Shown: piece after piece, positions 40,557 to 60,128 of the stretch | How the letters are laid out: the number at the start of each line of letters is the position of its first letter | Position numbering within the stretch: the first letter of the stretch is position 1 | DNA from: Klebsiella pneumoniae | Lineage (GTDB): Bacteria; Pseudomonadota; Gammaproteobacteria; Burkholderiales; SG8-39 | DNA length: 64,000 nucleotides | Assembly: GCA_945906755.1 (NCBI GenBank) | Contig: CAMDRJ010000001.1 | Location: forward strand, 11,638-75,637 | Direction: 5' to 3' | The notes under the pieces: model-generated | Databases searched by the model: none | Seen by the model: the letters and a program-made list of their open reading frames with translations, nothing else | What the model was told of the DNA's origin: nothing | Made by a program: the position numbers and the translations under genes

Positions 40557-40575
40557 TGATAGTCTCGCCGCACAC

Positions 40576-40851
40576 TTGAAGGATGCCATGCCCAACGTTC
40601 CCGATCGTCTTATCGCGCTGTTCGGTTCCCAGGCCGAAGTCGCTCGCCGCCTGCGGATCGACCGGGCCGTGATCAGCCATTGGGTGAAATGCGGTTATGT
40701 GCCTGCGCGTTGGTCGATGGAAGTCCAGTCGGTAACCGGCGGACAGATCGGCGCGGATGAGGTGCTGCGGGAAGCCACGCTCGCCAAACCGATTCGGTTG
40801 AAATCACGCTCCGACGATGACTCAGTTTCTGCTAACCAGGAAGGACACCAC
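40576..40851 (+). other. In-frame 5' extension of the aminotransferase ORF encoding a Cro/YdaS-like helix-turn-helix domain
   Basis: LFGSQAEVARRLRIDRAVISHWVKCGYVPARWSMEVQSVTGGQI fits the YdaS/Cro-like HTH pattern. Possible starts are TTG 40576 and ATG 40588, the latter with GAAGGA 4 nt upstream. There is no stop before the aminotransferase. Confidence 0.6.
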
Positions 40852-42102
40852 ATGAATCAATTTGCCCCCGCCAAGCGCATCACTTCATTTCATCCGCCGC
40901 AACGCACATTGATGGGGCCCGGGCCCACCGAGATTCATCCGCGCGTGCTCACCACGATGAGTCAGCCCGCGATCGGCTATCTCGATCCGGTGTTCGTCGA
41001 GATGATGGAAGAACTCAAGTCGCTGCTGCGTTACGCCTATCAGACTAAGAATCCGCTGACCTTCCCGGTGTCGGGCCCAGGCTCGGTGGGGATGGAATAC
41101 TGCTTCGTCAATCTGGTCGTGCCAGGCGACAAGGTGATCGTCGCCCGCAACGGCGTATTTGGCGGCCGGATGATCGAGAACGTCGAGCGCGCGGGCGGCA
41201 AGGCGATCGTCGTCGAGAGCGAATGGGGCGAGCCGGTTGATCCGAATAAGGTCGAAGAAGCCTTCAAGGCCAATCGCGATGCACGGCTGTTTTCATTCGT
41301 GCATGCGGAAACCTCGACCGGCGTGCAATCGGATGCGAAGACGCTCGTCGCCCTGGCGCATCAGTACGAATCGCTCGCGATTGTCGATGCGGTCACGTCC
41401 CTCGGCGGCTCGCCGCTCAAGGTCGACGAGTGGAATATCGACGCGGTCTACTCCGCCAGCCAGAAATGCCTGTCATGCACGCCCGGCCTGTCGCCCGTGT
41501 CGTTTTCCGAGCGCGTGGTCGATTATGTGAAAGCCCGCAAGGACAAGATCAAGAGCTGGTTCATGGATATGAATCTGTTGCTTGGCTACTGGGGTGCCAC
41601 GACCCGCACTTACCATCACACCGCGCCGACCAATTCGCTGTTTGGATTGCATGAGGCGTTGCTCCTCATTCGCGAAGAAGGGCTCGAGAACTCCTGGGCC
41701 AGGCATGCCCGCCACCACTTGGCGCTCAAGGCCGGTCTGGAGGCGATGGGTCTGCAATTCTTGGTGAAAGAAGCCTATCGGCTCCCGCAAATGAATGCGG
41801 TGCGGATTCCCGAGTCGATCCAATCGAAAGATGCCGATATTCGCAAACGGCTCCTCAACGATTTCAATCTCGAAATCGGTGCAGGGCTCGGACCTTTGGC
41901 TGGCAAGATCTGGCGGATCGGTACGATGGGCTACAGCTCACGACCGGAGAACGTAATGCTGTGCCTCTCGGCGCTTGGTTCGGTGCTGGATGACATCGGC
42001 TACAAGATTCATGTCGGTGACGCGGAAGCCGCTGCGCACCAGGCCTATGCCTCACTCCACGCCAAAGCCGCGCAAGCCAAGCAGCAGAAGAAGGCTGCGT
42101 AA
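40852..42102 (+). CDS. Class V aminotransferase (alanine-glyoxylate / serine-pyruvate aminotransferase type)
   Basis: MNQFAPAKR... start at ATG 40852 with AGGAAGGA upstream. LMGPGPTEIHPRVL N-terminal motif and SASQKCLS PLP-lysine context. Confidence 0.88.
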   Translation: MNQFAPAKRITSFHPPQRTLMGPGPTEIHPRVLTTMSQPAIGYLDPVFVEMMEELKSLLRYAYQTKNPLTFPVSGPGSVGMEYCFVNLVVPGDKVIVARNGVFGGRMIENVERAGGKAIVVESEWGEPVDPNKVEEAFKANRDARLFSFVHAETSTGVQSDAKTLVALAHQYESLAIVDAVTSLGGSPLKVDEWNIDAVYSASQKCLSCTPGLSPVSFSERVVDYVKARKDKIKSWFMDMNLLLGYWGATTRTYHHTAPTNSLFGLHEALLLIREEGLENSWARHARHHLALKAGLEAMGLQFLVKEAYRLPQMNAVRIPESIQSKDADIRKRLLNDFNLEIGAGLGPLAGKIWRIGTMGYSSRPENVMLCLSALGSVLDDIGYKIHVGDAEAAAHQAYASLHAKAAQAKQQKKAA

Positions 42103-42124
42103 CACCGTCGCCGCGGTTCATCAG

Positions 42125-42162
42125 AAGGGCCACATCGGATTCGGGCGTGGCCCTTTTGCTTT
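42125..42162. terminator. Rho-independent terminator candidate (bidirectional) between convergent genes
   Basis: aagggccac (42125..42133) pairs with gtggccctt (42147..42155), followed by ttgcttt. Confidence 0.6.
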
Positions 42163-43213
42163 ACATCTTCAGCACCACCCGACCAACGATCTTGCCGTCC
42201 TTCAGCTCTTGCAACGAGCGCTCGACTTGATCGAGATTGCGCGTCTCAATCGGGATCGATTTCAATTTGCCGGCGCGGGCAAGTGCGACGACTTCCTTCA
42301 GTTCGGCAACGGTGCCCACATACGAGCCCTGAATCGCGATACAGCGCTGGGCGATTGGCACGAGGCTCACCGGTATCTCGCCACCGAATAGTCCGCAGAC
42401 GACGTACTTACCGCCTTTGCGTAGCGATGCCACACCAAGCGTTGCCGTCTCGGTGGCGCCGACGAGATCAATCACGGCTTGGGTGCCGCCCCCCGACATC
42501 TTCTGGAGTTTGGCAAGCGCTTCCTTGTCGCGCGAATCGAGCACCGCGCTGGCGCCGGCCGCTCTTGCGGCATCGAGTTTCGCCGCATCGATGTCGACTG
42601 CCACCACGTTGCGATGTCCAAGCGCCTTGAGGATCGCAATACATTGCAGGCCGAGGCCACCCGCGCCCATCACGACCACCCAATCGTCCGCCTCAAATGG
42701 CCCCGCTCGCCGGATCGCGCCGAAGGTCGTTAGACCCGAGCAGGCGAGGGTCGCAGCAAATGCCGGTTCCACCCCCGCCGCATCGACCAGGTAGCGTGGA
42801 TGCGGAACGATCAGGTAATCCGCATAGCCGCCTGGGCGTCCCACGCCCATGAAGCGCGGCGCCATGCAAAGATTGTCATTACCGCTGTTGCACTTTGCGC
42901 AGTTGCCGCAGCCGGTCCAGGGACAGACGAGTCGATCTTGCCCGATCGGCACAGCACCCGCGTCCGGCCCGGCCGCCATCACCGTGCCCAATGGTTCATG
43001 GCCCATTGTGATCGGCGGCTTCATACCGCGTTCGGTCATGTAAAACCGCTTGCCGCCACCCAATTCAAAGTAGCCGTCCCGGATGTGCACATCGCTATGG
43101 CAAACGCCTGAATACTTGAGCTTGATCAGCACTTCGGTGCCGGTGGGCTTCGGCGTCTCGCGCATTACGCGTTGTAAAGGCTTGCCCCAATCAACGACTT
43201 CGTAGCTCTCCAT
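42161..43213 (-). CDS. Zinc-dependent alcohol dehydrogenase (MDR family)
   Basis: ORF 42161..43330; likely start MESYEVVDW (43213). Signature GVCHSDVH and GAGGLG. Confidence 0.85.
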   Translation of the reverse strand: MESYEVVDWGKPLQRVMRETPKPTGTEVLIKLKYSGVCHSDVHIRDGYFELGGGKRFYMTERGMKPPITMGHEPLGTVMAAGPDAGAVPIGQDRLVCPWTGCGNCAKCNSGNDNLCMAPRFMGVGRPGGYADYLIVPHPRYLVDAAGVEPAFAATLACSGLTTFGAIRRAGPFEADDWVVVMGAGGLGLQCIAILKALGHRNVVAVDIDAAKLDAARAAGASAVLDSRDKEALAKLQKMSGGGTQAVIDLVGATETATLGVASLRKGGKYVVCGLFGGEIPVSLVPIAQRCIAIQGSYVGTVAELKEVVALARAGKLKSIPIETRNLDQVERSLQELKDGKIVGRVVLKM

Positions 43214-43421
43214 CTTGGCGTCTCCTTGTGAGTCTTCCGCGTTTCCACCGTCGATTCTAATCGCGATGGCAGCAAGCGCGGCATTTGCACTCTGCCCACC
43301 GCCCGATCCGGCCGATGAGCCTGGATGCATGCCCGGTTGAGCAACTCAAGCGGTCCTGCGAAGTGTGACAACCAGGCGATCGACGTTCTGTCGGATTCGC
43401 TCCATCGTTCAGGAGAATGGC

Positions 43422-43766
43422 ATGAAACCGCGTGGCGAACGCATTGCCTGCATGATCGAAACCGTCGATGGCGCTCGCGGCGTCTATTCGGTGTTCGCCG
43501 GATCAGAACCGCAATCGATTGATCGCATCGATCCGGTGGAATGGGGTGCGACGAAACCATCGGGGCGCGTGAAGCTCGCAATGTTCAGTGTCATCGCCGA
43601 AATGGGTATGACCGGGCAGATTGTCCGCATCACCGGGCTGGAATGGATGGCGCTGATGCGAGCGAATCAAATGCAACACTTCTACGCGACCATCCTATGG
43701 GGTGGCGGGCCGCTGAAGGTCGTTCAAGACGCGCTCGAAGTGGGAAAGGCGGGCGTTCCCGCATAG
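43422..43766 (+). CDS. Hypothetical protein
   Basis: ORF 43365..43766. ATG 43422 is preceded by AGGAGA. 114 aa. No recognisable family. Confidence 0.55.
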   Translation: MKPRGERIACMIETVDGARGVYSVFAGSEPQSIDRIDPVEWGATKPSGRVKLAMFSVIAEMGMTGQIVRITGLEWMALMRANQMQHFYATILWGGGPLKVVQDALEVGKAGVPA

Positions 43767-43840
43767 CCGTTGCGGCAACTCATTTGGAAAACAATCCTGA
43801 GACCTTTACGAAAAGCTCCGACTAGTTCACAACGCACTCG

Positions 43841-45145
43841 GTGAAATTTCGTCGCACCTGTGCTTTCTTTAGCACGCTAGCGCAAAATGCGCGCATTAGA
43901 GCTTTACAGATGTTCCCTCCCAGCATGACGCACGACGAAGCACGCACAATTTCGTGGCGCTCGATCGCATCCATCACCCTCGTGGTGCTTGGCGTCGTCA
44001 TCGTGGTCGCGTTCGGATGGCAGGCCATTCGTGCCGAAGACGACACACGTACGCGCCTTGCCAATGCGCAAGCTCTCACGCGCCATGTCCTCGAGTTACG
44101 TTATCTGGCCGCTGATCTTGATGCTGCGCAAATCGTCTATGCGATTGAACTTTCGCGGAGCGGTCAAGCAGACCTAAAAGAAGGTCATCCGGTAAAGCTG
44201 GCGTTTTCGGGTGCCCTGACTGCATATCGTTCAAGGCTCGCCGCGATCGATGTGGCGCGCCTCACCATCGATGAGCAACGTCATCATCAGGCCGTGCAAC
44301 GCGCATTCGAGCTGTTTGCCAAATCGCAAGAACGAATGCTCGCCAGAAATCGGCAAAGTGCTGCCCAGGCTGGCGGCGCATCGCAAGACGGCAATGTCAA
44401 GCCGTCCTTCAAGCCTTCCGTGGAATTGGTGGCAGAGTTGGTGGAGCGCGTGAGTTCGCGCGCGGACCGGGCCGCCGTATTGGCCGCGCATGCGAGTGAC
44501 TACGCCGGGATATGGAAAGTTGTGGTCGGGGCAACGATCGCATTGCTTGGCGCGCTCTTTGGTGTGATCAACGCGCGGACCATCATGCAACGCGTCGGTC
44601 AAATCGGCAGCTTCGATCCGTTTTCGGGCATCGATCAACTGACTTCGGTGGCCAATCGCCGTCGCTTTGACGAAGAGTGTCCACGCGCCTTGGAGCGCGC
44701 TCGTCGAACAGAGCGTGAAGTCTCGGTAGCCAAGCTCGATCTGGACAATTTCGATGTGATCAGCGGGACCAATGGCCATCTGGCGGGCAATCGCTTGCTG
44801 GCGGCGACTGCGGCGTCGATATCTTCGCGTTTGCGGGAAGGGGACATGATTGCGCATTATGGTCCGGAGGAATTCGCCATCATCCTGCATGGATGCAGTG
44901 CCGATGCCGCGCGCGAAATTATCGATCGGGTTCGGGAGCTGGTTCCTGAAGGCCTCACGTTTTCCGCTGGCGTTATGGCTTCCGACGGCCATGAAGACGC
45001 GGCCATGACGCTCGCGCGCGCGGACCAAGCCCTTGATGCCGCGACGCATGCAGGACGCAATCGCACCGTCATCATGCGTCGTGATGCAACCGTCGAGCTG
45101 CAGCGCGACACCGACTTGCCGTTTGTGGTGGTGCGACGGGGCTAG
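43841..45145 (+). CDS. Membrane-associated GGDEF-domain protein with a degenerate active site (GPEEF) and retained RxxD I-site
   Basis: TM segment ITLVVLGVVIVVAF. GGDEF domain with LDLDNFDVISGTNGHLAGNRLL and REGD-MIAHY-GPEEF. The start may be further downstream (MFPPS at 43910). Confidence 0.8.
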   Translation: MKFRRTCAFFSTLAQNARIRALQMFPPSMTHDEARTISWRSIASITLVVLGVVIVVAFGWQAIRAEDDTRTRLANAQALTRHVLELRYLAADLDAAQIVYAIELSRSGQADLKEGHPVKLAFSGALTAYRSRLAAIDVARLTIDEQRHHQAVQRAFELFAKSQERMLARNRQSAAQAGGASQDGNVKPSFKPSVELVAELVERVSSRADRAAVLAAHASDYAGIWKVVVGATIALLGALFGVINARTIMQRVGQIGSFDPFSGIDQLTSVANRRRFDEECPRALERARRTEREVSVAKLDLDNFDVISGTNGHLAGNRLLAATAASISSRLREGDMIAHYGPEEFAIILHGCSADAAREIIDRVRELVPEGLTFSAGVMASDGHEDAAMTLARADQALDAATHAGRNRTVIMRRDATVELQRDTDLPFVVVRRG

Positions 45146-45172
45146 CACCCCGGCCGCGGTGACGCCATAGCT

Positions 45173-46135
45173 ATGTCATCGCACCACCATCCGAGTCACT
45201 CCGCGCATGACGCTCACCACGATCACGCTCACCACGATCACGGCCACCACCACGCGCACGGCCCTGGGCCCGGGCATCGCGCGTTTGCCTGGAGCATCAC
45301 GCTCAATCTTTGTCTCGTAACCGGTCAATTCATATTCGGTGTGATGGCCGGTTCCCTTGCGCTGATTGCCGATGCGGGCCATAACCTAGCCGATGTCCTC
45401 GGACTTTTTATTGCTTGGTTTGCGGCGGCCGCAGCGCGGCGGGTGCCCACCCCCCGATTGAGTTATGGATTGCGTGCAACATCGATTTGGGCGGCGCTCA
45501 TCAACGCCGGACTTATCCTCGTCGCTTGCGGCGCGATTGCCTGGGAAGCCATGCATCGATTTTCCGTGCCGCGCGAAGTCGCCGGTCATATCGTGATCTG
45601 GGTGGCCCTGGCGGGCGTCGTCATCAACGGGCTATCGGCGGTGCTGTTTCATCGCTCGGCCGCCCACGACTTGAATGCAAAGGGCGCATATCTGCATTTG
45701 ATCGGGGATGCGGCCGTCTCACTCGGTGTGGTCGTGGCAGGGATTGCCATCGTGCTCACCGGATGGTCCTGGATCGATCCCGCGATGAGCCTACTGGTGG
45801 TGACCTTCATCGTGTTTGCGACTTGGCGGATGTTTCGTGAATCGCTCAATCTCGCCTTGGGCGGCGTGCCGCTTGGCATTGACCCGGGCGAGGTCCGTGC
45901 GTTTCTTCGGTCGCATACTGGGGTCACCGCGCTACATGATTTGCATGTGTGGGCCATGAGCACCACCGAAGTTGCCTTGACGGCGCATCTGGTTATGCCG
46001 ACCGGACATCCGGGGGACGAATTTCTCCGGCAACTTTGTGAATCCCTTGAAGCGCGGTTCGGTATTCATCATGCGACGATTCAGATCGAACAAGGCAGCA
46101 TCGAATGCCGTCTCGCACCTGATCATGTAGTCTGA
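45173..46135 (+). CDS. czcD: Cation diffusion facilitator (CzcD/ZitB-type) metal efflux protein with a His-rich N-terminus
   Basis: 320 aa. HNLADVLG (TM2) and HLIGDAAVSLGVV (TM5) motifs. N-terminal HHHPSHSAHDAHHDHAHHDHGHHHAH. Confidence 0.9.
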   Translation: MSSHHHPSHSAHDAHHDHAHHDHGHHHAHGPGPGHRAFAWSITLNLCLVTGQFIFGVMAGSLALIADAGHNLADVLGLFIAWFAAAAARRVPTPRLSYGLRATSIWAALINAGLILVACGAIAWEAMHRFSVPREVAGHIVIWVALAGVVINGLSAVLFHRSAAHDLNAKGAYLHLIGDAAVSLGVVVAGIAIVLTGWSWIDPAMSLLVVTFIVFATWRMFRESLNLALGGVPLGIDPGEVRAFLRSHTGVTALHDLHVWAMSTTEVALTAHLVMPTGHPGDEFLRQLCESLEARFGIHHATIQIEQGSIECRLAPDHVV

Positions 46136-46160
46136 GGGCAGGAGATCAAAGGGGACCGTA

Positions 46161-47015
46161 ATGCCAACCAGTGAACCGGAGCAACTCGCCGCACAAATCG
46201 CCGGGTTGATCGAACACCGCTTCGGTGAATCCTGTGCGGTCGATGCCAAGCTTCAGGGCCTCGACGGCTTGTTTCGCATCGCCGATCATCGCGTCAAGCG
46301 CCACTACACCGATCAACCGGTCACGCATGAGTTGATCCGCATGCTTTGTGCGCTCGCGCTGTCCTCGCCGTCAAAGAGCGATCTGCAACAGCGCGACATC
46401 GTGGTGCTGCACGATGCCAGCCAGCGCGCGCGGATCGCGAATTTCTTTCCAGGCGATCCGTGGATGGCCAAGGCGCCGGTCTTTCTCGTCTTCTGCGGCA
46501 ATAACCGTCGGCAACGGCAATTGCACGCCTGGCGTGGTATTCCCTTTGCTAATGATCATCTCGATCCGTTCTTCAATGCCGCGGTTGATGCCGCGATTGC
46601 GCTCGGCACGTTTATCGCTGCCGCGGAAACCGTGGGGCTCGGCTGCTGCCCGATCAGTGTGATTCGCAATCATGCTGAAGCAGTGAGCGAAATCATCGGA
46701 CTGCCCGATCATGTGTTTCCGGTCGCCGGCATGACGGTCGGTTGGCCCGCCCACCACCGCGAGATCAGTCTTCGCCTGCCGATCAAGACCACCGTTCACA
46801 TCGATCGCTTCGATGACAGCGCGGTACGCGAGCAAGTTGAGGCCTATGACCAGCGCCGGCATGCGGTGCAACCAATTCGGCAGCAACGCGATGTCGCGGT
46901 GCATGGCGAAGCGAAGGAATATGGCTGGTCCGAAGACAAGGCGCGTCAGTACGCCAAGCCCGACCGGGACGATTTCGGCGCCTATGTGCGAAGACGCGGG
47001 TTCAAGCTCTTCTAA
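46161..47015 (+). CDS. Nitroreductase family NADPH-dependent oxidoreductase (NfsA-like)
   Basis: 284 aa. RVKRHYTDQPV ... SSPSKSDLQQRDIVV ... CCPISVIRN is a typical nitroreductase fold pattern. Confidence 0.8.
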   Translation: MPTSEPEQLAAQIAGLIEHRFGESCAVDAKLQGLDGLFRIADHRVKRHYTDQPVTHELIRMLCALALSSPSKSDLQQRDIVVLHDASQRARIANFFPGDPWMAKAPVFLVFCGNNRRQRQLHAWRGIPFANDHLDPFFNAAVDAAIALGTFIAAAETVGLGCCPISVIRNHAEAVSEIIGLPDHVFPVAGMTVGWPAHHREISLRLPIKTTVHIDRFDDSAVREQVEAYDQRRHAVQPIRQQRDVAVHGEAKEYGWSEDKARQYAKPDRDDFGAYVRRRGFKLF

Positions 47016-47839
47016 GCGTCCTTAAAATTCGGGGCGCGCTTTTCCTGCATGGCGGCGATGCCCTCTCTTAGGTCTGCTGACTGTTGACTGGCGACGTACG
47101 CTCGATCGATCGCGTCTGCATCCATCTTTCCACGCGCGATCGCGTTCAAGTGGTGCTTCATGCTGCGTACCACTGCGGGTGCCCCGGCGCTAAGCGATCC
47201 GACCATCGCCGTCACCCGGGCCTCGAACTCGTTCGGGGCGACGAGCGCGTCATAAAACCCATAGGTGTTCATCTCCTCGCAGGGGACGGGGTCGCCCAGC
47301 AGGAACAGACGCTTGGCGGCCGAGAGCCCAAGGCGCTCGACATAGCGGCGCATCGCGCCTGAGTAGTAGTGCAAGCCGATCCGCATCGCGGGCATCACGA
47401 AGCGTGAGCCGGTGACGCCGACTCGGAAGTCGCAGGCGAGCGCAAGATCGGTCGCCCCGCCATAGACGCTGCCATTCATCGCTGCGATGGTCGGAATCGG
47501 GAACGCCTCGATGGTGTCGATCAGCGCATCCCACTTGATCGAATGATCGCCCGCGTCAAGCTCGATGAGTGCCTGCAGTGTGTAGCCGGAACTGAATGTC
47601 TTCGCGCCGGTCCCAGTGAACACTAGCGCGCGGATGCCGGGCGTTTGCTCAACCGCGGCAAGGTGATCGCGCAGCACCGGAAGATCCACCGGATCAATGC
47701 GGTTGTGCTCGCGCGGTCGATTGAAGCGGATCGTGGCGCACACCCCTTCAATCGTTAGGATGGGCGAAGAAGAACCAATAGCGTCTGACATGAGAAGAGG
47801 CTCACACCTTGAGAAGAGTTCGGGCCGATTATCAGCCAT
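47012..47839 (-). CDS. Enoyl-CoA hydratase/isomerase family protein
   Basis: 275 aa. ATIRFNRPREHNRI and the MNGSVYGGATDLALACD oxyanion-hole block. AGGA lies 5 nt upstream of ATG 47839. Confidence 0.85.
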   Translation of the reverse strand: MADNRPELFSRCEPLLMSDAIGSSSPILTIEGVCATIRFNRPREHNRIDPVDLPVLRDHLAAVEQTPGIRALVFTGTGAKTFSSGYTLQALIELDAGDHSIKWDALIDTIEAFPIPTIAAMNGSVYGGATDLALACDFRVGVTGSRFVMPAMRIGLHYYSGAMRRYVERLGLSAAKRLFLLGDPVPCEEMNTYGFYDALVAPNEFEARVTAMVGSLSAGAPAVVRSMKHHLNAIARGKMDADAIDRAYVASQQSADLREGIAAMQEKRAPNFKDA

Positions 47840-47845
47840 CCGATT

Positions 47846-47943
47846 CCTGAGCGGTGCTTTCTCAGGTAAAAGAAAAGGGTGTAACGGGCCCTGCGGGGCG
47901 CGTTACACCTTTCACCTCGCGTACCTCGATCCGATGAAAGGTG
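47846..47943 (+). promoter_or_regulatory. Structured gcvT leader with mutually exclusive hairpins; the last one sequesters the SD/start
   Basis: cctgag/ctcagg (47846-51 / 47861-66). ggtgtaacg/cgttacacc (47878-86 / 47901-09). cacctttca/tgaaaggtg (47906-14 / 47935-43). Stems 2 and 3 share cacc, and stem 3 covers aaagg and the GTG. Confidence 0.35.
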
Positions 47944-49064
47944 CCGATGTCCGATCCCGTTGAGACGCTACTCGTCACACCGCTGAACGCGTTGCATCGC
48001 GCGCTTGGCGCAAGGCTCGTGCCTTTCGCCGGCTATGCGATGCCGGTGCAGTTTCCTGCCGGTATCCTCGCCGAGCACCTCCATACACGCACCAAGGCCA
48101 GCCTGTTCGATGTCTCGCATATGGGCCAGATTCGTTTGTCCGGGCCGGATGCCGCAGCGAGCCTGGAATCACTCGTGCCGGCCGATATCATCGGGTTGCC
48201 TGCCGGTCGGCAGCGCTATACCTATTTCACCAATGACGCCGGTGGCATCGAGGACGATCTGATGGTTGCCAACACCGGCGATGCACTCATGCTGGTGGTC
48301 AACGCCTCACGCAAAGCCAACGATCTTGCCTGGCTGCGGTCGCGAATCGGCAACCGCTGTCAGATTGAACCAATGGCTGATCGCGCCTTGCTTGCCTTGC
48401 AGGGCCCGGCGTCTGCGCGCGTGCTGGCGCGCCTTGTTCCGTCGGTCGCGGCGATGCGCTTCATGCAAGTCGCGCCGGCGACCGTCGATGGCATCGAGCT
48501 TTCACTGTCACGTTCTGGCTACACCGGCGAGGATGGCTTTGAGATCAGCGTGCGAGCGATGCGGAGCGCTTGGCCAAACGATTGCTCGCCGATGACGATG
48601 TTGCGCCCGCCGGCTTGGGCGCGTGGGATTCGTTGCGCCTGGAAGCGGGCCTGTGTCTGTATGGCCACGATATCGGCGCGACCATCTCACCGGTCGAAGC
48701 CGCGCTTGAATGGGCGATTCAAAAAGTGCGCCGGAACGGCGGTGCACGCGTCGGTGGGTTCCCCGGTGCGGCAATCATCTTGCAGCAGATCGAGCAAGGA
48801 ACCGCGCGTCGTCGAGTCGGACTGATCCCCGATGGCCGCGCGCCGATCCGCGAGGGCGAGGCCTTGTTCGATAGCGAACAACGCCACGTCGGCCGGGTCA
48901 CCAGCGGCGGATTCGGCGCATCGGTGAATGGCCCGATCGCGATGGCCCTCGTCGAAACCAAATATGCCGCGCCCGGACTTACTTTGACGGCGGTCGTTCG
49001 TGACCGACCACGCCCATGCCGCGTTGTCGCGTTGCCGTTTGTGCCACATCAATACTGTCGGTAA
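47941..49064 (+). pseudogene. gcvT: Glycine cleavage system aminomethyltransferase (T protein), disrupted by a -1 frameshift
   Basis: The N-terminal part is in the frame of ORF 47941..48825 up to ...GYTGEDGFEISVRA. The C-terminal part is in the frame of ORF 48570..49064 (DAERLAKRLLA...LRLEAGLCLYGHDI...). The frames meet at about 48558 with one nucleotide missing. Confidence 0.85.
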
Positions 49065-49092
49065 CACCGGCCTTTAAATTTGGAGTCAAACA

Positions 49093-49464
49093 ATGAGCAC
49101 ACGCTACACCGCCGATCACGAATGGATCCGGATTGAGTCAGGCGACGTTGCCGCCGTCGGGATCACCGCATTCGCGCAAGAGCAGCTTGGCGATATCGTT
49201 TTCGTGGAGTTGCCCGCGATCGGTCGCAAAGTGAAGAAGGGCGAAGACGTAGCGGTGATCGAATCGGTCAAGACCGCCGCGGATTGCAAGGCACCAGCGT
49301 CTGGCACGGTTGTCGAAGTCAACAAGGCACTCGAAGATGAGCCCGGCAAGGTCAATCAAGAACCTTTGAGCGGCGGCTGGTTTTTCAAGCTCAAGCTCGA
49401 CGCACCGGACGAGCTTGGCGCTTTGATGGATGAAGCCGCGTATCAAGCGAGCATCAAGAAGTAG
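49093..49464 (+). CDS. gcvH: Glycine cleavage system H protein
   Basis: 123 aa with the lipoyl-lysine motif VIESVKTAAD. Confidence 0.95.
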   Translation: MSTRYTADHEWIRIESGDVAAVGITAFAQEQLGDIVFVELPAIGRKVKKGEDVAVIESVKTAADCKAPASGTVVEVNKALEDEPGKVNQEPLSGGWFFKLKLDAPDELGALMDEAAYQASIKK

Positions 49465-49486
49465 CGGCATGCAGCGGAGATCAGCG

Positions 49487-52390
<2,904 letters not shown>

Positions 52391-52392
<2 letters not shown>

Positions 52393-52561
52393 AGGGGGAC
52401 GCTACCATTTATTAGTCCTGCTCTTTCCTCGGTCGTCCACGTGGACGAAATTGCAGCGCTTGCCCTGTCAGCTGCTCGGAAATAAAGGGGAGAAATAAAG
52501 GGGACGCTTCCACTTTGTAAATAAAAGGGACGGTTCCATTTAATGGAGTGATAAAATGGAA
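52391..52561. repeat. Array of REP-like AAAGGGGACG(C/T)T(A/T)CC units plus an orphan copy of the RAYT gene 3' end
   Basis: Units at 52391..52410, 52497..52516 and 52523..52542, with a partial unit at 52484..52492. 52391..52479 aligns with 54824..54911 (by eye roughly 85-90 % identical) and still encodes LTGQALQFRPRGRPRKEQD-stop on the minus strand. Confidence 0.8.
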
Positions 52562-52677
52562 GCCGGTATCAGGCCCTACCCTTTGCCATCCGAATCGGTC
52601 GTGCACTTGTCTACGAATGGCGGCGTACGCGTGGGTGTGATGTCGCTGAAAATCGGCGCGAATAGCCGCGCAAAGGC

Positions 52678-53364
52678 CTACTCGATGCGTTCATATGCCG
52701 GCAGGGTTAGGAATTCCACATACTCACCAACGGTGATTCTCTCGAAGAGCTGCGCGCCTTCTTCATATTTCCCGGCGCGCCAGGCTTCCTCGCCCAGATA
52801 AGCGCGCACCTTCGGCAGTTCTTCGGCGAGCAGTTGGCGGAACAGCTCCACTGTTACCTTGCGGCCATCGTCCAGCACGCCCTTGGTTGAGCGGATCCAC
52901 TGCCAGATCTGTGAGCGCGAGATCTCGGCGGTCGCGGCGTCCTCCATCAGGTTGAACACCGGCACGCAACCATTGCCGGCGAGCCACGCGCCCAAGTATT
53001 GAATGCCCACCGAGATGTTGTTGCGCAAGCCCGCCTCGGTGATCGGCGTCGAGGGCCGGAAGTCGAGCAGATCTTTCGCCGACACATTGACGTCGGGGCG
53101 TTGCTTGCCGTATTGGTTGCGCGCCGGCATGTGCTGGTCGAACACCGCCTTCGCGACCGGCACCAGCGCCGGATGCGCGACCCACGTACCGTCGCAACCG
53201 TCGGTGACTTCGCGCAGCTTGTCTTGGCGCACTTTGTCGAGAGCTGCTTCATTGGCCGCAGGATCGTTCTTGATCGGGATCTGCGCAGCCATGCCGCCCA
53301 TTGCCGGTGCATTGCGACGATGACAGGTCTTCACGAGCAAGAGCGCATAGGCGCGCATGAACGG
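52678..53364 (-). pseudogene. aceB: Malate synthase A, C-terminal fragment only (5'-truncated)
   Basis: FMRAYALLLVKTCHRRNAPAMGGMAAQIP ... DGTWVAHP ... NLMEDAATAEISRSQIWQW ... FLTLPAYERIE corresponds to roughly the last 40 % of malate synthase A. Nothing resembling the N-terminal part lies upstream. Confidence 0.85.
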
Positions 53365-53447
53365 TGTGCAAGCACCACGGGCTCGCGTTGCGCTGGTTCG
53401 ATCGCAAGCCCGTGCTGGCACGCGACAACGACCGCGAAGTGCAGAGC

Positions 53448-54425
53448 ATGATGCGATCGTTCTTCGAGTCGCCCGGCACGATCTTTCTTAATCGGGCCCT
53501 GCAGAACGACTCGGCGCGATTGAAATTCGATTTAGCCTCCCACCTGGCCCACAAGATTTTGCATGGCGGCGACGGGCTCAAGTCGCCGCATGCCACTGGT
53601 GGTCAAATGGGCGGGAGCCCCGCGGGCGTGCAGGTTGCAGCGAGCATGAGCCCGCAGGATGTCTTACATGCATGGCGGGATTTCGAATGCAGTTTCTTTG
53701 CCGGCGCGCTGCTTGCGCCCAAGGCGCCGTTTCGCCGTTTTCTCGCGCGCGAGTCGTACCGTGTGGAAGCAGGCGAGAAGATCGAGCTCACCCCTGCGGT
53801 GGTGATGCGCCGCATGACGAAGGTCTCACCCTATCCATACTGGCATTTCTTCGATGCCTATCCGCCCGGATATCTACGCGCGGTCTATCGCGGCAACGGC
53901 ATTCCGCTGCCCTGGGGAAACATGGCGCAGGTGTCCGACCCATGCCCCAATTGGGCGGTGTTCCGCATGCTCGGGGCGAGCCGCGGCGCGGACCGTGGTT
54001 CCCAGATTTCGGTGCTGCTCGATGGCGATCAAGCGCACCTCTATTGTTGTCACTCACGCCGCACCACTGACATGGCCGGCAATTCGCATGTGCTGTCAGT
54101 GGGCGTGGATCTCTCCCCGGCGCTGGATTCACACGGGGCGGAGGCGAAGAGCGTGGTGAAAAGCATCGCGGAGGCCTGCTTGCAGCATCACGGCGAAGCG
54201 AAAATTCCCAAGGCTGCAGAGGAGGCGATCCGGGCGGTGGCGAAGGTTCTCAACGTCGCGTGGGTCGAAGAAGCACTGACCAAGCCCGCCCGCATCATCT
54301 GCCCGCGCAGCATGCATTGCCCAAGGACAGAGCACTGTGATGGCACAGAGATGTCGCGGGCGCGCGAGATCACCGATGTGCGCGAAGAGATCGTCGGACG
54401 TTCGCGGCGGGGGCGTCAGGCGTAG
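53448..54425 (+). pseudogene. ScfR/RamB/PrpR-like regulator (ImmA-like plus DUF2083-type C-terminal region) lacking the N-terminal XRE HTH; probably 5'-truncated
   Basis: Blocks FFAGALLAPKAPFRRFL, VVMRRMTKV, DPCPNWAVFRML and the C-terminal Cys cluster CPRSMHCPRTEHC parallel the family. No HTH is encoded, and the ORF begins within about 80 nt of the aceB fragment end. Confidence 0.5.
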
Positions 54426-54439
54426 CAAGAGTTTTCGCG

Positions 54440-54790
54440 TCAGGTTGCCCAGACTTTCAATGAGCAATGCGATGCCGCATGGACAAAGTCATTGTCAGTC
54501 GTCAGCAGCGTCAGGTCATGGCGGATGCAGAGCTGCGCCAGCAAAGCATCGATAGTCCCGATCTGCACGCCTGCGCGGCGGCACAAGTTGCGCAACTGCG
54601 CGGCGTCGATATGATCTTGCCAGTCCGGGCTGAGGAGCGGCAATGCGGCAAATCGTTCGACAATGGCCTTGCGCGAGCGTGGGCCGGCAAAACCCTGCAG
54701 TAACTCCTGCAGAACGAGCCCGGTCGTGACGACGATTTCCTCACCGACCAGCGCTGTACGCAGAGCCTGGACTTGAGGCGAATTGGACAG
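54440..54790 (-). pseudogene. vapC: PIN-domain VapC toxin, 5'-truncated (no start codon, first catalytic Asp region and antitoxin missing)
   Basis: Minus-strand translation LSNSPQVQALRTALVGEEIVVTTGLVLQELLQGF...IGTIDALLAQLCIRHDLTLLTTDNDF is VapC-like. The reading frame runs into the REP units at 54798..54842 with no ATG/GTG/TTG before 54643. Confidence 0.7.
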
Positions 54791-54797
54791 CGGGGAA

Positions 54798-55577
54798 AAA
54801 GGGGACGTGGAAAAAGGGTGGGAAAAAGGGGACGTTACCCTTAATCCTGCTCCTTCCTCGGTCGTCCCCGGGGACGGAATTGCAGCGCTTGGCCCGTCAG
54901 CTTCTCCAATTTGCCGATAAATCGCGCTGAGCCGCAGGGCAGACCTCTATCAACATTTCGCCGCAGCACTTCGAGTTCCTGTGGTTCATCGCCCTCGGCC
55001 AGCCAGTTCGACCAGTTGCCGATCCCGTCGAATTGCCTGCGCCAGGAGGCGACGTTGGTCAGAACCGAATCAGCGCGCAATCCACAGTGCGCAGCGGCGC
55101 TGGACCAGTGATAGTTCTCGGCCTTGCGGACAATTTTCGCTCGGACCGGATTGCGTTCGACGTAGCGAATGGCGGCCCACAGATATTCCTCGTCGAGTGC
55201 CGACGAGAAGAATCGCCCTTGCCACAGATGGCCCTTCCAGCCGTGGCTGCGATTGACGCGCTGCGCATAACGCATGTGCAGCGGCTTGAGTACTTGGTGC
55301 AAGCCGTCTTCAGTTCCTGGCACTGCGACGAGATGGATATGATTGTCCATCAGACAGTACGCGAGCACCTCGACCTCGTGTTGCTCGGCGTAGGCCTTTA
55401 GCCAGCCAAGATAAGCTTCGCGGTCTTCATCGGTGAAAAACACAGGCTCGCGACGATTCCCCCGTTGCGTGATGTGGTGGGGTACAAGGGCACAGACGGC
55501 GCGGGCGAGTCTTGGCATAGCGGAGACGCCACCATGAAAGGTGAAAGCTGTGTAACTTAAAGGGTAACGTCCCCTTT
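54798..55577 (-). mobile_element. RAYT unit: IS200-like Y1 transposase gene bracketed by inverted REP-like elements
   Basis: The 18-nt core aaaggggacgttaccctt (54825..54842) and its exact reverse complement (55560..55577) flank the gene. There is an extra partial unit at 54798..54810. The left core overlaps the TAA stop. Confidence 0.8.
54841..55518 (-). CDS. REP-associated tyrosine transposase (RAYT, IS200/IS605 Y1 superfamily)
   Basis: 225 aa. HHITQRGN, the HUH-type motif MDNHIHLV, and the Tyr region AAIRYVERNPVRA. Confidence 0.85.
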   Translation of the reverse strand: MPRLARAVCALVPHHITQRGNRREPVFFTDEDREAYLGWLKAYAEQHEVEVLAYCLMDNHIHLVAVPGTEDGLHQVLKPLHMRYAQRVNRSHGWKGHLWQGRFFSSALDEEYLWAAIRYVERNPVRAKIVRKAENYHWSSAAAHCGLRADSVLTNVASWRRQFDGIGNWSNWLAEGDEPQELEVLRRNVDRGLPCGSARFIGKLEKLTGQALQFRPRGRPRKEQD

Positions 55578-55840
55578 AACCCCGAAATAAATGCGGCCAA
55601 TCCACTTCAGCCTCCTCGTCGGCCGATAAAGCGCGCGCGGTGTGACGAAAGCGCAGGCCGTGGCCGGGAACGGTCAGCACCGCCTCGCGACCCAGCCGCT
55701 GGCGCAGCGATGCGGCCGGCACGTTCAAGTTGTTGTCGCATGCGACCGCAATCGACCACGGGTAGTTCTCCGCGCGATTGACGCGCAGGGCATATCGCGA
55801 ATGCGTGGCGCGAAGTAGCCTCTCTTCGCATGCGATGCCC
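55576..55840 (-). pseudogene. Degraded second RAYT copy (N-terminus and catalytic Tyr segment deleted)
   Basis: ...LLRATHSRYALRVNR-AENYPWSIAVAC... aligns with LKPLHMRYAQRVNR...[about 40 aa missing]...AENYHWSSAAAHC of the intact copy. No HUH motif. Confidence 0.55.
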
Positions 55841-55855
55841 CTTGCAACCGTTTCG

Positions 55856-56818
55856 CTAGTCGAGCCCCTTTGCCTTCGCAAACGCGCGCAGCTCGTCAAT
55901 GTCTTTCTTGTGTTTGGATGCGCCCATCTCCCAGATGCTGTCGGCGAATACGCGCTGCACCTTCGCGGCTTGTTCTGGCCCCATTTGCACGATGGTCATG
56001 CCCTTTGCCAACAGCTCTTTCTCTTCATTGGCGATGATGCCTCTCACCGTGTCAAACCAGCGCAGTTCCGCTTTGCGTGCTTCGTCGAGAAAAATTTTCT
56101 GATCGGCCGCGCTGATCTTGTTCCACGCGGCGAGATTGACGAGAATCGGAATCGTGCCGTAGCCAAACGCCGGACGGACCAGATGCTTTGACACCTCGTA
56201 GTAGCGGGCGTCCAGCACGCCGTAGGTGGGATAGGCGAAGCCGTCCACCACACCTTTGTCGAGTGCGGTGTAGATCTCCCCGACCGGCATCGTTACCACT
56301 GATGCGCCCATCATGCGGATCACGCCCGCGTACGCCGGGTTGCCGCGGATCTTGCGGCCTTGCAGATCACCCGCGGCGGTGAGCGGCTGGCGCACGACTA
56401 GCTGATAGCCGCCTTGCGGGGAAAACGCCACCGACAGCACCTTCAAGCCGATGCGGTTGTACATCTTGTCGACCAGATCGAAAATCCCGGAGGAGCGGCG
56501 CTGCTCAGGCGTGCCGCCCAGCGCATCGAGCGAACCAAGGATCGATGTGGTGCCGAAGTGATAGACGCCATGCGTGAAGAGGAACTGGAAAGCGCCCGAA
56601 GCGACCGGCTGCAGTTGTTCAAACGCGGGGACCGTTTCCGGCCCGCTTACGATGAACTTGATGCGGCCATTGGTCGCTGCTTCCACCGCTTTCATATACG
56701 GCTCGGCGTATTGCGGCACCTGCGGGCTGTTGCGATCCCAGCCGTTCAACCAGCGATAGTCGGCTGCCACGACGTTCTGCGCGGCGATGAGCAGCGCCAG
56801 CATCAACACTTTCTTCAT
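55856..56818 (-). CDS. TRAP-type (DctP family) substrate-binding protein, orphan
   Basis: 320 aa. Signal peptide MKKVLMLALLIAAQNVVA. Close paralog of the next gene. Confidence 0.85.
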   Translation of the reverse strand: MKKVLMLALLIAAQNVVAADYRWLNGWDRNSPQVPQYAEPYMKAVEAATNGRIKFIVSGPETVPAFEQLQPVASGAFQFLFTHGVYHFGTTSILGSLDALGGTPEQRRSSGIFDLVDKMYNRIGLKVLSVAFSPQGGYQLVVRQPLTAAGDLQGRKIRGNPAYAGVIRMMGASVVTMPVGEIYTALDKGVVDGFAYPTYGVLDARYYEVSKHLVRPAFGYGTIPILVNLAAWNKISAADQKIFLDEARKAELRWFDTVRGIIANEEKELLAKGMTIVQMGPEQAAKVQRVFADSIWEMGASKHKKDIDELRAFAKAKGLD

Positions 56819-56858
56819 GTCTCTCTCCTATTGTTTTATAGCCGCTGCCAAGTGCTGG

Positions 56859-57818
56859 TCAGAGCCCTTTTGATTTGGCCAACGCGCGCATTTCTTCGAT
56901 GTCTTTTTTCGACTTCTGCATCGACAACTCCCAAAGCCCCTCGGCCCATGCGTCTTTCAGCTTGGCCTTCTGTGCGGCACCCATCTCGACGATCTGCATG
57001 CCTTTGGCGACCAGGGCCTTGTCTTCTTCCTCGGCGAGGCGGGCGTATTCCCGATACCAGATCGCCTCGTATTTCTTGCCGACATCGGTGAGGATTTTTT
57101 TCTCGGACTCAGAGAGCCTGTTCCAGGCCTGCAGATTCATGAAGATCGGATTCATGTTGAAACCAAACGATGGTCGCAACACGTATTTCGCCACCTCATA
57201 CCAGCGATAGTTGAGCGGCCCGATCACCGGCCATGCAGCGCCATCGACCACGCCCTTATCGAGTGCCGTGTAGATTTCACCAGGGGGCATCTGTACCGGC
57301 GTTGCACCGAGCATCCGGAAAACGGCTGTATAGCTTGGGGTGCCGCGGATCTTGCGGCCTTGCAGATCACCGGCTGGGCTCGGCGGCTGGCGCAGCAAAA
57401 TGCCGTATCCTCCATCTGGGGTCATCGGCGAGGCGACCAGTTTGAGGCCAAGCTTCTGATAATGGCGGTCGATCCATTCCAGTACGCCCGATGCGCGCCG
57501 CGACTTCTCGTCCCCGCCGACCCCTTCAAACGCGGTCAGCACCGGCGTCGTGCCGAAGTGGTAGGCGCCATGGGTATAGAGAAAGTGGAAGGCGCCCGAG
57601 GCCACCGGCTGCAACTGCTCGAATGCCGGCACGGTTTCCGGTCCGCTGTGAAGGATCTTGATGCTGCCCTTCGAGGCCACCTCGACCTCCTTGATGAAGG
57701 GTTCGATGATGATCGGCATCGCCGGATAGTTTCTGTCCCAGCCGCTTAGCCAGCGATAATCGGCCGCGGCGACGGCTTGCGCAGACAACAGCAGCACCAG
57801 CATTACTACTCGCTTCAT
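56859..57818 (-). CDS. TRAP-type (DctP family) substrate-binding protein, orphan (tandem paralog)
   Basis: ORF 56859..57857; start MKRVVMLVLLLSAQAVAA (57818). Shares long identical blocks with its neighbour (SGPETVPAFEQLQPVASGAF). Confidence 0.85.
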   Translation of the reverse strand: MKRVVMLVLLLSAQAVAAADYRWLSGWDRNYPAMPIIIEPFIKEVEVASKGSIKILHSGPETVPAFEQLQPVASGAFHFLYTHGAYHFGTTPVLTAFEGVGGDEKSRRASGVLEWIDRHYQKLGLKLVASPMTPDGGYGILLRQPPSPAGDLQGRKIRGTPSYTAVFRMLGATPVQMPPGEIYTALDKGVVDGAAWPVIGPLNYRWYEVAKYVLRPSFGFNMNPIFMNLQAWNRLSESEKKILTDVGKKYEAIWYREYARLAEEEDKALVAKGMQIVEMGAAQKAKLKDAWAEGLWELSMQKSKKDIEEMRALAKSKGL

Positions 57819-58046
57819 ATACATCTCCTTTGTCTCGTCGTGCGATCGTGGTCGCATCGTCGCTTAGAACCCGGGCGGGGGCCGGGACGGTTTCCTTGCC
57901 AAGCGGAGTCTACCTAGTTTGGGGAATTGAGAAGGCAGCGGCCGGCTCGGTCCTTCCGATGGGCAAACGCCCACGAGCCGACATGGTTGCTTGTCTGGTC
58001 GGGTGGCCCGACAATGCAGGTTCTTCTCAAGTCCTCAAATCATTCA

Positions 58047-60128
58047 ATGGCCTCATCTCCCTGGCGCATCGGTATCGATACCGGCGGCACGTTTACTGAC
58101 ATCGTTGCCGTGCATGGCGGCACCGGGCGCATGCTCGTTTCCAAGGTGGCGAGCACGCCGGCGAACCCCGCATTGGGGCTCGTCAATGGGGTGAAAGAAG
58201 TGATGCGAATCGCGGGAGAGCCGCTGACATCGGTCGCCACGCTCTCGCACGGTACGACGGTCGCGACGAACGCTCTATTGCAAGGGGCGATTGATGGGCT
58301 TGGGCTCATCGTCACCGAAGGCTTTCGCCACATCCTGGAGATCGCGCGTCAGACGGTGCCCGATGGCTATGGCAATTCGTATTTCTGGGTAAAGCCCGAT
58401 CGGCTGGTGCCGCTTGATCTCGTTCATGAAGTGGGTGGCCGTCTCAATTTCCGCGGCGAAGAATTGCGTCCGCTCGATGAAGAAAGCGTGGTCAATGCGG
58501 CGCGTTTCTTCAAGCGCAAAGGCGTTCGCACCGTCGGCGTCTGCCTGATTCATTCGTATGCGAATGCGGCGCATGAGCAGCGCGTGCGAGAAATTCTGCT
58601 GGCCGAATATCCGGATCTGGTGATCTCGCTATCGTGCGAGGTGTTGCCGGAATATCGCGAATACGAGCGTGCGGTCACCACCTTGGTCGATGCGTTTGTG
58701 AAGCCGCATATGAGTGTGTATCTGCGCCGAATCCAAGACGAGCTGGGGGCCGAGCTGGCCGGCAAGCCGTTTCTGGTGATGCAGTCATCAGGTGGTGTGA
58801 TCAGTGCCCAGCAAGTCGTCCGCAAACCGATTACCACGGCGCTCTCTGGGCCCGCGGCGGGTGCGCTCGGATGCTCGGTGGTGGCCAAGCTCGCCGGATT
58901 CGAGGATGTCGTGACGCTCGATGCAGGCGGTACCTCCACTGACATTTGTCTCATCGAGAAGGGCACGGCGCATCTCACCAATGGCTCATCGATCGGACAA
59001 TTCCCAGTTCGTATCCCGATGATCGATATCGAGACGATCGGTACCGGCGGCGGATCGATTGCGTGGCTATCGCGCGAGGGGCATCTCAAGGTAGGACCCA
59101 AAAGCGCGGGCGCGGTGCCGGGGCCGATGTGTTATCCAAATGGCGGCGAGCAACCCACGATTACGGATGCGAACCTCGTGTTGGGTCGCATTCCACCCGC
59201 GCTGATCGGTGGCGGTATCGCTCTCAATGCCGAACGTTCGCGTGCCGGGATCGCAGCGCTTGGCGAGCGGCTTGGCAAACGGATGTCGATTGAACAATTG
59301 GCGGAAGGCATTCTGGAAATCGCCAATTGGAACCAGGCCAATTGCATCCGGCAGATGACCATTCAAAAGGGCATCGACCCACGCCGCTTCGCGCTTCTAT
59401 CATTCGGCGGTGCGGGGCCCGCGCAATCACCCGCTGTGATGCGGCTGCTTGGCATGGCATGCTGCATCGTGCCGTTCAACCCGGGCAATCTCTCAGCGTT
59501 CGGCTTGCTCGCGGTCGATTGGCGGACCGACCATATCGCCACCCGCGTGACGCATGAAGAGGCAATCGACGCCGCGACGATCCGCGAAGTGTTCACCAGG
59601 TTGGAGCGCGAAGCCACCGAAACGCTGGCGCGCGATGGCATCGATCCGGCGCGTTGCCGCACCGTCCGCGAAGCTGATCTGCGCTATGTCGGCCAATCGA
59701 TGGAAGTGCGGGTGGCAGCTCCAGCGGGCGATATCGATGATCGTTTTATTGCGCGCCTCATCGAAGCCTTTCATAGCGCCCATCGCAAGGCCTTCGGCTA
59801 CGACTACGCGGGCAAGCAAAAGATCGAGTTGGTGAACTACTGCGTGTCAGGCTTTGGCATGATCGAGCGGCCCGCGCTGCCGCAACTGGCGCCAATGCCT
59901 GGCGTGGTGCCGGTGCGCAAAGGCATGCGTAAAGTGTATTTCGATGGTGCGTGGCTCGAGACCCCTATCTACGATCGCGCAGTGTTGCCTGCCGCCCACC
60001 GCATCGAAGGTCCGTGTGTCGTTGAAGAATTCGGCTCGACGACGGTGGTTTGGCCCGGCCAATGGTTGGAGGTCGATGGCCACGGCATCATGCTCGTGCG
60101 CGAAAAAGTGACAGCGATCAGGACGTGA
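58047..60128 (+). CDS. hyuA: Hydantoinase/oxoprolinase family protein, A (ATP-binding) subunit
   Basis: ORF 57927..60128; start MASSPWRIGIDTGGTFTD (58047). About 693 aa. Confidence 0.9.
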   Translation: MASSPWRIGIDTGGTFTDIVAVHGGTGRMLVSKVASTPANPALGLVNGVKEVMRIAGEPLTSVATLSHGTTVATNALLQGAIDGLGLIVTEGFRHILEIARQTVPDGYGNSYFWVKPDRLVPLDLVHEVGGRLNFRGEELRPLDEESVVNAARFFKRKGVRTVGVCLIHSYANAAHEQRVREILLAEYPDLVISLSCEVLPEYREYERAVTTLVDAFVKPHMSVYLRRIQDELGAELAGKPFLVMQSSGGVISAQQVVRKPITTALSGPAAGALGCSVVAKLAGFEDVVTLDAGGTSTDICLIEKGTAHLTNGSSIGQFPVRIPMIDIETIGTGGGSIAWLSREGHLKVGPKSAGAVPGPMCYPNGGEQPTITDANLVLGRIPPALIGGGIALNAERSRAGIAALGERLGKRMSIEQLAEGILEIANWNQANCIRQMTIQKGIDPRRFALLSFGGAGPAQSPAVMRLLGMACCIVPFNPGNLSAFGLLAVDWRTDHIATRVTHEEAIDAATIREVFTRLEREATETLARDGIDPARCRTVREADLRYVGQSMEVRVAAPAGDIDDRFIARLIEAFHSAHRKAFGYDYAGKQKIELVNYCVSGFGMIERPALPQLAPMPGVVPVRKGMRKVYFDGAWLETPIYDRAVLPAAHRIEGPCVVEEFGSTTVVWPGQWLEVDGHGIMLVREKVTAIRT

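Follow-up and report, generated by a model that had tools for sequence, protein, structure and literature searches.

Head-to-head fragments of malate synthase A and a DUF3612 regulator: the probable relic of a divergent locus that lost its interior

Regulators of the ScfR/IsaR group combine an XRE HTH with an M78-like region and a DUF2083 domain bearing a [4Fe4S] cluster, and the clade is defined by the cysteine motif C-x2-C-x4-C (PMC6765138). As to DUF3612, its only trace in the literature that we searched is a Vibrio natriegens gene that acquired mutations in each of two independent acetate-evolved lines (bioRxiv 10.1101/2025.06.23.661028), which fits a role of this domain in acetate metabolism. 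In the stretch of DNA analysed here (64,000 nucleotides of a betaproteobacterial genome, hereafter the window), the 3' parts of a malate synthase A gene (aceB') and of a DUF3612-type regulator gene (reg') stand head to head at 52678-54425 (Table 1). It is very probable that the two together form a non-functional relic of a former aceB-X-regulator segment whose interior has been lost. They are the remains of ordinary gene decay, in other words pseudogene fragments, and not a new system.

Table 1. Features of the relic and of the island around it (window coordinates)
Feature	Position	Strand	Description and basis
aceB'	52678-53364	minus	last 228 codons and stop of malate synthase A; TIGR01344, Pfam, DNA collinearity with L005 7170-7840
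reg'	53365-54425	plus	last 351 codons and stop of a ~521-aa XRE-HTH/M78-like/DUF3612 regulator; collinear with L005 10515-11547
Deletion junction	53364-53365	none	zero spacer; base-by-base comparison with both L005 flanks
Contigs sharing the junction			L001 ERZ27280224; L003 ERZ27280297; L092 ERZ27280310 (ENA k141); L002 ERR5863117 (Logan)
Terminator-like hairpin and T-run	52560-52576	minus	~100 nt downstream of the aceB' stop; consensus scan
Variable island	52386-55851	none	holds the relic, REP/RAYT and vapC'; blastn against L090
Island left edge	52391-52541	none	REP-like motif, 87-nt RAYT remnant, two more REP-like motifs (52497-52541)
vapC'	54440-54784	minus	VapC/PIN toxin; NF047959 positions 16-125 of 125, E 7.8e-24
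RAYT gene	54841-55518	minus	apparently intact, within the REP-arm bracket 54820-55582

A sequence-only reading of this DNA had proposed that both genes are 5'-truncated, face away from each other and have no promoter or intergenic region left, and that the minus strand encodes only roughly the last 40% of malate synthase A, with homology starting near 53364. Our searches bear this out. Full-length malate synthase A has ~543 codons, and codons 1-315 are missing from aceB'. The minus-strand ORF 52678-53421 matches TIGR01344 at positions 283-510 of 511 (E 1.4e-94), and its 317.2 bits fall below the curated full-length cut-off of 594.5 bits. Homology begins at the P of PFMRAY (codon 53364-53362). 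The Pfam search of aceB' recovered the whole MS_C domain (PF20659, positions 2-118 of 118, E 6.7e-39), only positions 142-247 of 248 of MS_TIM-barrel (PF01274), the first 141 profile positions being gone, and no MS_N domain (PF20656). More than half of the TIM barrel is absent, a part that in malate synthases holds the Mg2+ and glyoxylate ligands. We also considered a naturally short malate synthase family with which aceB' might align end to end, and rejected it: the two short matches that we checked turned out to be a gene cut by a contig end (P0157) and a gene split by a frameshift (L089). Among GTDB species representatives, which do not include the window's own genome, the closest malate synthase is that of L009 (90% aa).

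The regulator has been shortened in the same fashion. In the full-length L005 homolog the HTH occupies residues 17-78, the M78-like region residues 205-318 and DUF3612 residues 323-496. The plus-strand ORF 53364-54425 (353 aa) holds a complete DUF3612 (PF12268, positions 1-173 of 176, E 1.9e-66, 224 bits against a cut-off of 25) and a weak match to Peptidase_M78/IrrE-like, but the domain search found no HTH in it; the HTH and the linker up to residue 171 are gone. Since its only DNA-binding domain has been lost, reg' should be unable to bind DNA. What is left aligns closely with full-length proteins, being 87% identical to the 522-aa P0002 from residue ~173 of the latter onward, and it keeps all family-invariant residues but one. 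The possibility that homologs naturally lack an HTH and start at the same position did not hold up either: in a search of 5.8 billion proteins, the best 119 non-self homologs of reg' (78-87% identity) are all 502-550 aa long and all carry HTH_3/HTH_31, and a naturally short, HTH-less family was accordingly rejected.

The assignment of the regulator to the DUF2083/ScfR type, as made from the sequence alone, did not survive. The C-terminal domain is DUF3612, and PF09856 (DUF2083) matched neither reg' (E <= 0.01) nor the full-length L005 homolog (E <= 0.1). In the family alignment, the invariant cysteine motif of the reg' family is ICPRSxHCPRxxxCDG, i.e. C-x5-C-x5-C, unlike the C-x2-C-x4-C of ScfR/IsaR. 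Searches of the PDB with phmmer and with a profile did not match the solved PrpR chains and gave only generic XRE HTH matches. An AlphaFold model of reg' built from a 10-sequence alignment (pLDDT 46) was too poor for a fold search against PrpR (PDB 6CYY).

A comparison, base by base, with both flanks on the contig of the close relative L005 (JGI 3300036830) placed the switch between the two genes at 53364/53365. By blastn, L005 7170-7840 corresponds to 52694-53364 of the window and L005 10515-11547 to 53365-54397. The gap of about 80 nt that had been assumed between the two homologies does not exist, as they abut. Relative to L005, 2,674 bp are missing at the junction, namely malate synthase codons 1-315, a 27-nt spacer, the 369-aa gene X, a 78-nt intergenic region and regulator codons 1-171 plus one base. 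Neither fragment has its native start codon. The GTG that the ORF finder reads as the start of the 353-aa ORF owes its existence to the junction, G53364 belonging to the aceB side and TG being what is left of a Leu CTG codon in the regulator, and the mechanical ORFs of aceB' and reg' overlap at 53364-53421. No microhomology is evident at the breakpoints in comparison with L005, a proxy that is only 81-83% identical to the window. The same junction is present, at 99.99-100% identity, in four more contigs from four other samples. The junction and its flanking 30-mers had no match in JGI metagenomes.

Relatives reveal what the locus must have looked like. One gene order recurs on every contig that carries one of the nearest regulators (L005, L006, L007/L008 and the P0004 contig): xth, followed by aceB and X, both reading toward xth, and then, in the opposite direction, the regulator and Y. 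The divergent aceB-regulator pair suggested by the sequence-only reading is thus intact in L005, L006, L007 and the P0004 contig, with the correction that X, a complete gene of 357-372 aa, lies between aceB and the divergent promoter. X is absent at the relic. X and Y are ~60% identical paralogs in which only a weak ApbA-like Rossmann N-terminus could be recognized. In four relatives, the intergenic region between X and the regulator contains an invariant triple direct repeat, AAATTTCAC-N5-AAATTTCAC-N6-AATTTCAC, and the AAATTTCAC repeat likewise precedes aceB in L009 and L088, neither of which has a regulator next to that gene. The triple repeat is absent from the window, and it probably represents the operator of the lost divergent promoter region. 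Nor did tblastn detect the N-terminal parts of aceB and of the regulator anywhere in the 64-kb window; when the L005 proteins (malate synthase, X, regulator, Y and xth) served as queries, only aceB' and reg' came up, i.e. no second copies in the window.

In its orientation (head to head), in the partners involved and in having lost precisely the interior, the relic agrees with this conserved arrangement, and one internal deletion is therefore the simplest history. The ancestral segment would have been one contiguous stretch, with aceB and X on one side of the operator and promoter and the regulator on the other. Most simply, a single illegitimate deletion of ~2.7 kb without obvious microhomology would have taken its interior, removing aceB codons 1-315, all of X, the intergenic region with the triple AAATTTCAC and regulator codons 1-171 including the HTH, and would have left the two 3' parts joined head to head at 53364/53365. 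The earlier proposal of a single deletion in a divergent regulator-target pair therefore stands insofar as exactly the interior of the relatives' divergent locus is missing, while it needs to be extended to gene X, which was lost as well. That the deletion at 53364/53365 was one event we infer from this correspondence.

The relic is not located where aceB normally is. In relatives the native aceB site adjoins xth, and xth was not found in the window by tblastn; the relic is ectopic. As this is not the native aceB site, the relic gives no ground for concluding that the glyoxylate shunt was lost. The closest GcvP relatives of the window are encoded on contigs L090 (88% aa) and L091 (86% aa). By blastn, L090 1-12900 aligns with window 39934-52385 and L090 19793-22913 with window 55852-58988, and between these flanks the window has an island of ~3.5 kb, while L090 carries 6.9 kb of different genes at the same position. 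The two share there just one 47-nt match, inside the RAYT gene. The orthologous position in L090 thus offers no intact aceB-regulator pair: between gcvP and two dctP genes it has five other genes (two TctC, an OYE-type oxidoreductase, an MFS transporter and an AlkZ-like gene). In L091, yet another gene set follows gcvP.

The island is rich in REP and RAYT (REP-associated tyrosine transposase) sequences. The REP motif AAGGGGACGYTWCC occurs five times in the window versus 0.66 expected, in all cases within 52393-55576. The RAYT gene scores above the cut-off for PF01797 (E 1.1e-14) and, with 70.3 bits, below the cut-off of 80 for NF047646; it is bracketed by 23-nt inverted REP arms at 54820-54842 and 55560-55582 (I1, 91% complementary). 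The 87-nt remnant at the left edge (52391-52477) is 83-88% identical to 54824-54906 (direct repeat D1, 88% to 54841-54906), and 52415-52477 on the minus strand corresponds to the last 21 codons of the RAYT gene (tblastn with the RAYT protein: 21 aa, 95%, E 3.8e-8). A further degenerate RAYT piece is possible at 55741-55821, with a weak match (E 0.033). vapC' lacks the first ~15 codons and the start codon, its reading frame running into REP motifs, and it falls short of a complete PIN domain, which would begin with a start codon and include the N-terminal acidic residue. As for RAYT and REP sequences being the cause of the deletion, they are co-located with it, which does not show causality. 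In GC3 (0.71-0.75) and in distance to the nearest homologs the relic is similar to the native genes on either side; both features would agree with descent within one lineage without proving it. As to how the segment came to the gcvP-dctP spot, the relic may be what remains of a copy that was relocated, duplicated or imported into this rearrangement-prone place, or of a larger rearrangement.

Given such surroundings, one might suppose that aceB' and reg' never formed one locus here but arrived separately and became neighbours through successive illegitimate recombination in a hotspot that accumulates junk. The island does hold several unrelated remnants (vapC', RAYT pieces and REPs), the position is ectopic and L009, the source of the closest malate synthase in the genome collection, has no regulator adjoining that gene. 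However, orientation and partner identity match the conserved divergent locus exactly, the missing part is precisely its interior with zero spacer, and aceB' is about as near to the malate synthase of L005, which has the divergent locus, as to that of L009 (dN 0.062 vs 0.065). We therefore regard separate arrivals as unlikely, though less so than the other alternatives considered below.

Returning to the preferred reading, a relic of one locus, we asked how far the two fragments have decayed. Neither shows decay. Against its three closest relatives reg' has a dN/dS of 0.074-0.081, and of 0.114 when L004, which is more distant, is taken; pairs of intact regulator genes give 0.08-0.18 over the same columns. 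For aceB' the values are 0.06-0.13 vs 0.13-0.19 between intact genes; the L012 row was left out of this comparison owing to an in-frame stop in the upstream extension chosen for it. At sites that are >=98% conserved in 119 homologs, reg' has one private change in 189 (E81Q) and aceB' none, while intact homologs have 0-4. Since both fragments are undecayed, the deletion should be recent relative to the divergence from known relatives. Nonetheless, open frames of 228 and 351 codons without relaxed selection are equally expected of a retained functional fragment. Variation among the assemblies amounts to five SNPs, three of them in the 687-nt aceB'. The aceB' variants, P0361 included, comprise M138R (in the NLMED motif) and Q153K, which hit residues invariant in 119 homologs. 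This looks like early drift in a dead gene, the numbers being small. Genome-wide decay was rejected for this neighbourhood, as 11 of the 13 genes common to the window and L090 are intact; gcvT and gcvP, upstream of the relic, are frameshifted in the window (at ~48552 and ~49831, respectively).

Expression signals are scarce around both fragments. The promoter scan of 52200-55700 found no sigma-70-like promoter, and nothing resembling a Shine-Dalgarno sequence stands ahead of GTG 53364, of ATG 53445 or of the earliest in-frame ATG in aceB'. The upstream sequence of each fragment is simply the antisense of the other. The hairpin downstream of aceB' may be the retained aceB terminator, although the region held fewer such sites than its shuffles in the terminator scan. 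The same scan predicted no terminator between gcvP and reg', so that there may be some read-through from the plus-strand gcvTHP genes into reg'. A search of 47000-57000 against Rfam returned nothing, including no glycine riboswitch before gcvT. Taken together, we infer that aceB' and reg' are both silent.

It is this potential read-through, together with the absence of decay, that gives some room to another explanation, according to which the 353-aa ORF is a functional HTH-less sensor (M78-like plus DUF3612) that is expressed from gcvTHP and would either soak up ligand or interfere, as a dominant-negative partner, with an intact paralog. The ORF is intact, with a GTG created at the junction; no terminator was predicted after gcvP; the single private change at 189 conserved sites and the dN/dS of ~0.08 would suit a protein under selection; and reg' has zero SNPs among the five assemblies as against three in aceB'. 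Yet recency accounts for the lack of decay equally well, and zero SNPs per 1 kb is what the background rate would lead one to expect. Moreover, neither of the two candidate starts (GTG 53364 and ATG 53445) has a promoter or a Shine-Dalgarno sequence, HTH-less proteins number 0 among the 119 nearest homologs, and the upstream gcvT and gcvP genes are themselves frameshifted. We consider a functional reg' quite improbable. A more specific version, in which reg' would be an anti-regulator born of the deletion, with its GTG arising in frame by chance and its read-through product persisting by titrating ligand away from an intact DUF3612 regulator encoded elsewhere in the genome or by drawing that regulator into inactive oligomers, is slightly more improbable still. 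Finally, an assembly chimera at 53364/53365 is the least credible alternative. In its favour, the DNA derives from a metagenome assembly, whose quality the frameshifted gcvT and gcvP nearby could call into question. Against it, five assemblies share the junction and the break sites have no repeat in common that could produce a mis-join, which together all but exclude one; in addition, 11 of the 13 genes shared with L090 are intact.

The relic itself, as the very probable outcome of the ~2.7-kb deletion, is of little import beyond annotation. Public assemblies annotate both ORFs as genes (a 'malate synthase' of 226-247 aa and a 'DUF3612 protein' of 353 aa), and a pseudogene-fragment flag is due. 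Likewise, metabolic reconstructions of the source MAG should not tally aceB' or reg' as a glyoxylate-shunt enzyme or as its regulator. A modest gain comes from the intact relatives, which define a conserved aceB-X/DUF3612-regulator-Y locus with a sharp candidate operator, three copies of AAATTTCAC.

How, then, does the locus compare with described systems? The surrounding island resembles REPtrons in having a 225-aa Y1/IS200-like transposase flanked by inverted REP arms, with more REP copies present, and differs from them in that two degenerate RAYT remnants lie beside the apparently intact copy, with unrelated gene fragments in between. The C-terminal 228 residues encoded by aceB' are 85-90% identical to intact betaproteobacterial malate synthase A, including the conserved NLMEDAATAEI stretch, whereas residues 1-315, the start codon, the ribosome-binding site and the promoter are missing, so that aceB' is a remnant and not an enzyme. 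Similarly, reg' retains the M78-like region and the whole of DUF3612 at 78-87% identity to DUF3612-type XRE regulators, and in contrast to them its DNA-binding HTH and linker (residues 1-171) have been deleted. The intact parent of reg', for its part, shares with ScfR/IsaR regulators (RamB, PrpR, MccR and PccR) a layout in which an XRE HTH is followed by an M78/IrrE-like region and by a C-terminal domain with cysteines, as well as the same kind of genomic tie to glyoxylate-cycle genes (PMC6765138, PMC10370305), which in the relatives takes the form of a genomic association with aceB. The parent plausibly works like an ScfR, its likeness to that family being one of layout. The aceB-X/regulator-Y locus is a testable handle on an uncharacterised regulator family, an apparent counterpart of RamB/PrpR.

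Beside the relic, in which the 3' parts of malate synthase A (aceB') and of a DUF3612 regulator (reg') abut head to head, both gcvT and gcvP are frameshifted, outside homopolymers in either case. In gcvP the base was lost at GTGCTC^AGAATCCC, inside RNVL/ENPAWYTAY. The same split gene calls recur in L001 and L092, contigs from other samples that share the relic junction. Intact are gcvH and 10 other genes common to the window and L090, a contig of a close GcvP relative. Therefore, the glycine cleavage system directly beside the relic appears to have been freshly inactivated.

The relic itself varies within the population. Three of the five SNPs found between this population's assemblies fall in the 687-nt aceB' fragment, and two of these three are non-synonymous, changing positions that do not vary across 119 homologs (M138R and Q153K). 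None of the five lies in reg', a fragment of 1,061 nt. This enrichment in aceB' exceeds what relaxed selection alone would predict. A malate synthase A split into two gene calls (175 and 319 aa) was also seen in an unrelated 163-kb soil contig (L089 5431-6960); it represents a further case of a broken aceB or else a frameshift introduced by assembly.

Both fragments lie in the island between gcvP and dctP, together with a REPtron-like unit, in which a REP-associated tyrosine transposase (RAYT) gene is placed between 23-nt inverted REP arms. All five copies of the AAGGGGACGYTWCC motif are inside the island, at 52393-55576. Two RAYT remnants, one clear and one weak, are present in the same orientation. 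A vapC (PIN toxin) remnant lacks its first ~15 codons, a start codon and any antitoxin gene, and its reading frame continues into REP sequence.

Coordinates of the features discussed
Feature	Contig	Position	Strand or remark
gcvT	window	47941-49064	frame switch near 48552
gcvP	window	49487-52392	1 base missing at ~49831
RAYT remnant, clear	window	52415-52477	within 52391-52541
aceB' SNP	window	52855	
aceB' SNP	window	~52900-52902	residue 153 of 226-aa gene call
aceB' SNP	window	52946	
vapC remnant	window	54440-54784	-
REPtron-like unit	window	54820-55582	
RAYT remnant, weak	window	55741-55821	
Triple repeat	L004	9937-9972	
Triple repeat	L005	9943-9978	
Triple repeat	L006	2449-2484	
Triple repeat	L007	2221-2256	
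Triple repeat	L009	8957-8992	
Triple repeat	L088	9001-9022	
X	L005	8813-9922	
Y	L005	11681-12748	

The stretch from gcvP to the two dctP genes is hypervariable in close relatives, three genomes carrying three different gene sets (window 52386-55851 vs L090 12901-19792 vs L091 12914-17118). L090 retains a 47-nt piece (14060-14106) with 91% identity to the interior of the window's RAYT gene. In one related MAG (L010 5704-10687), gcvP is followed immediately by an aceB in the same direction of transcription; a gcvP-aceB neighbourhood therefore occurs naturally in the clade, with the relative orientation opposite to that in the window.

In relatives' contigs, a triple direct repeat of invariant sequence, AAATTTCAC-N5-AAATTTCAC-N6-AATTTCAC, is located in the promoter region separating the X-aceB genes from the DUF3612 regulator, and is also found upstream of aceB without an adjacent regulator. 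This repeat is a candidate operator for the uncharacterised DUF3612 regulator family. X and Y are paralogs of ~355-370 aa, about 60% identical to each other, and in many MAGs of Burkholderiales they flank aceB or the DUF3612 regulator; besides L005, counterparts are present in L004, L006, L007, L009, L012 and L015. Presumably both proteins are connected with the metabolism of glyoxylate or acetate. Neither matches a Pfam family above threshold, and their N-terminus bears a weak resemblance to the ApbA/ketopantoate-reductase-like Rossmann fold.
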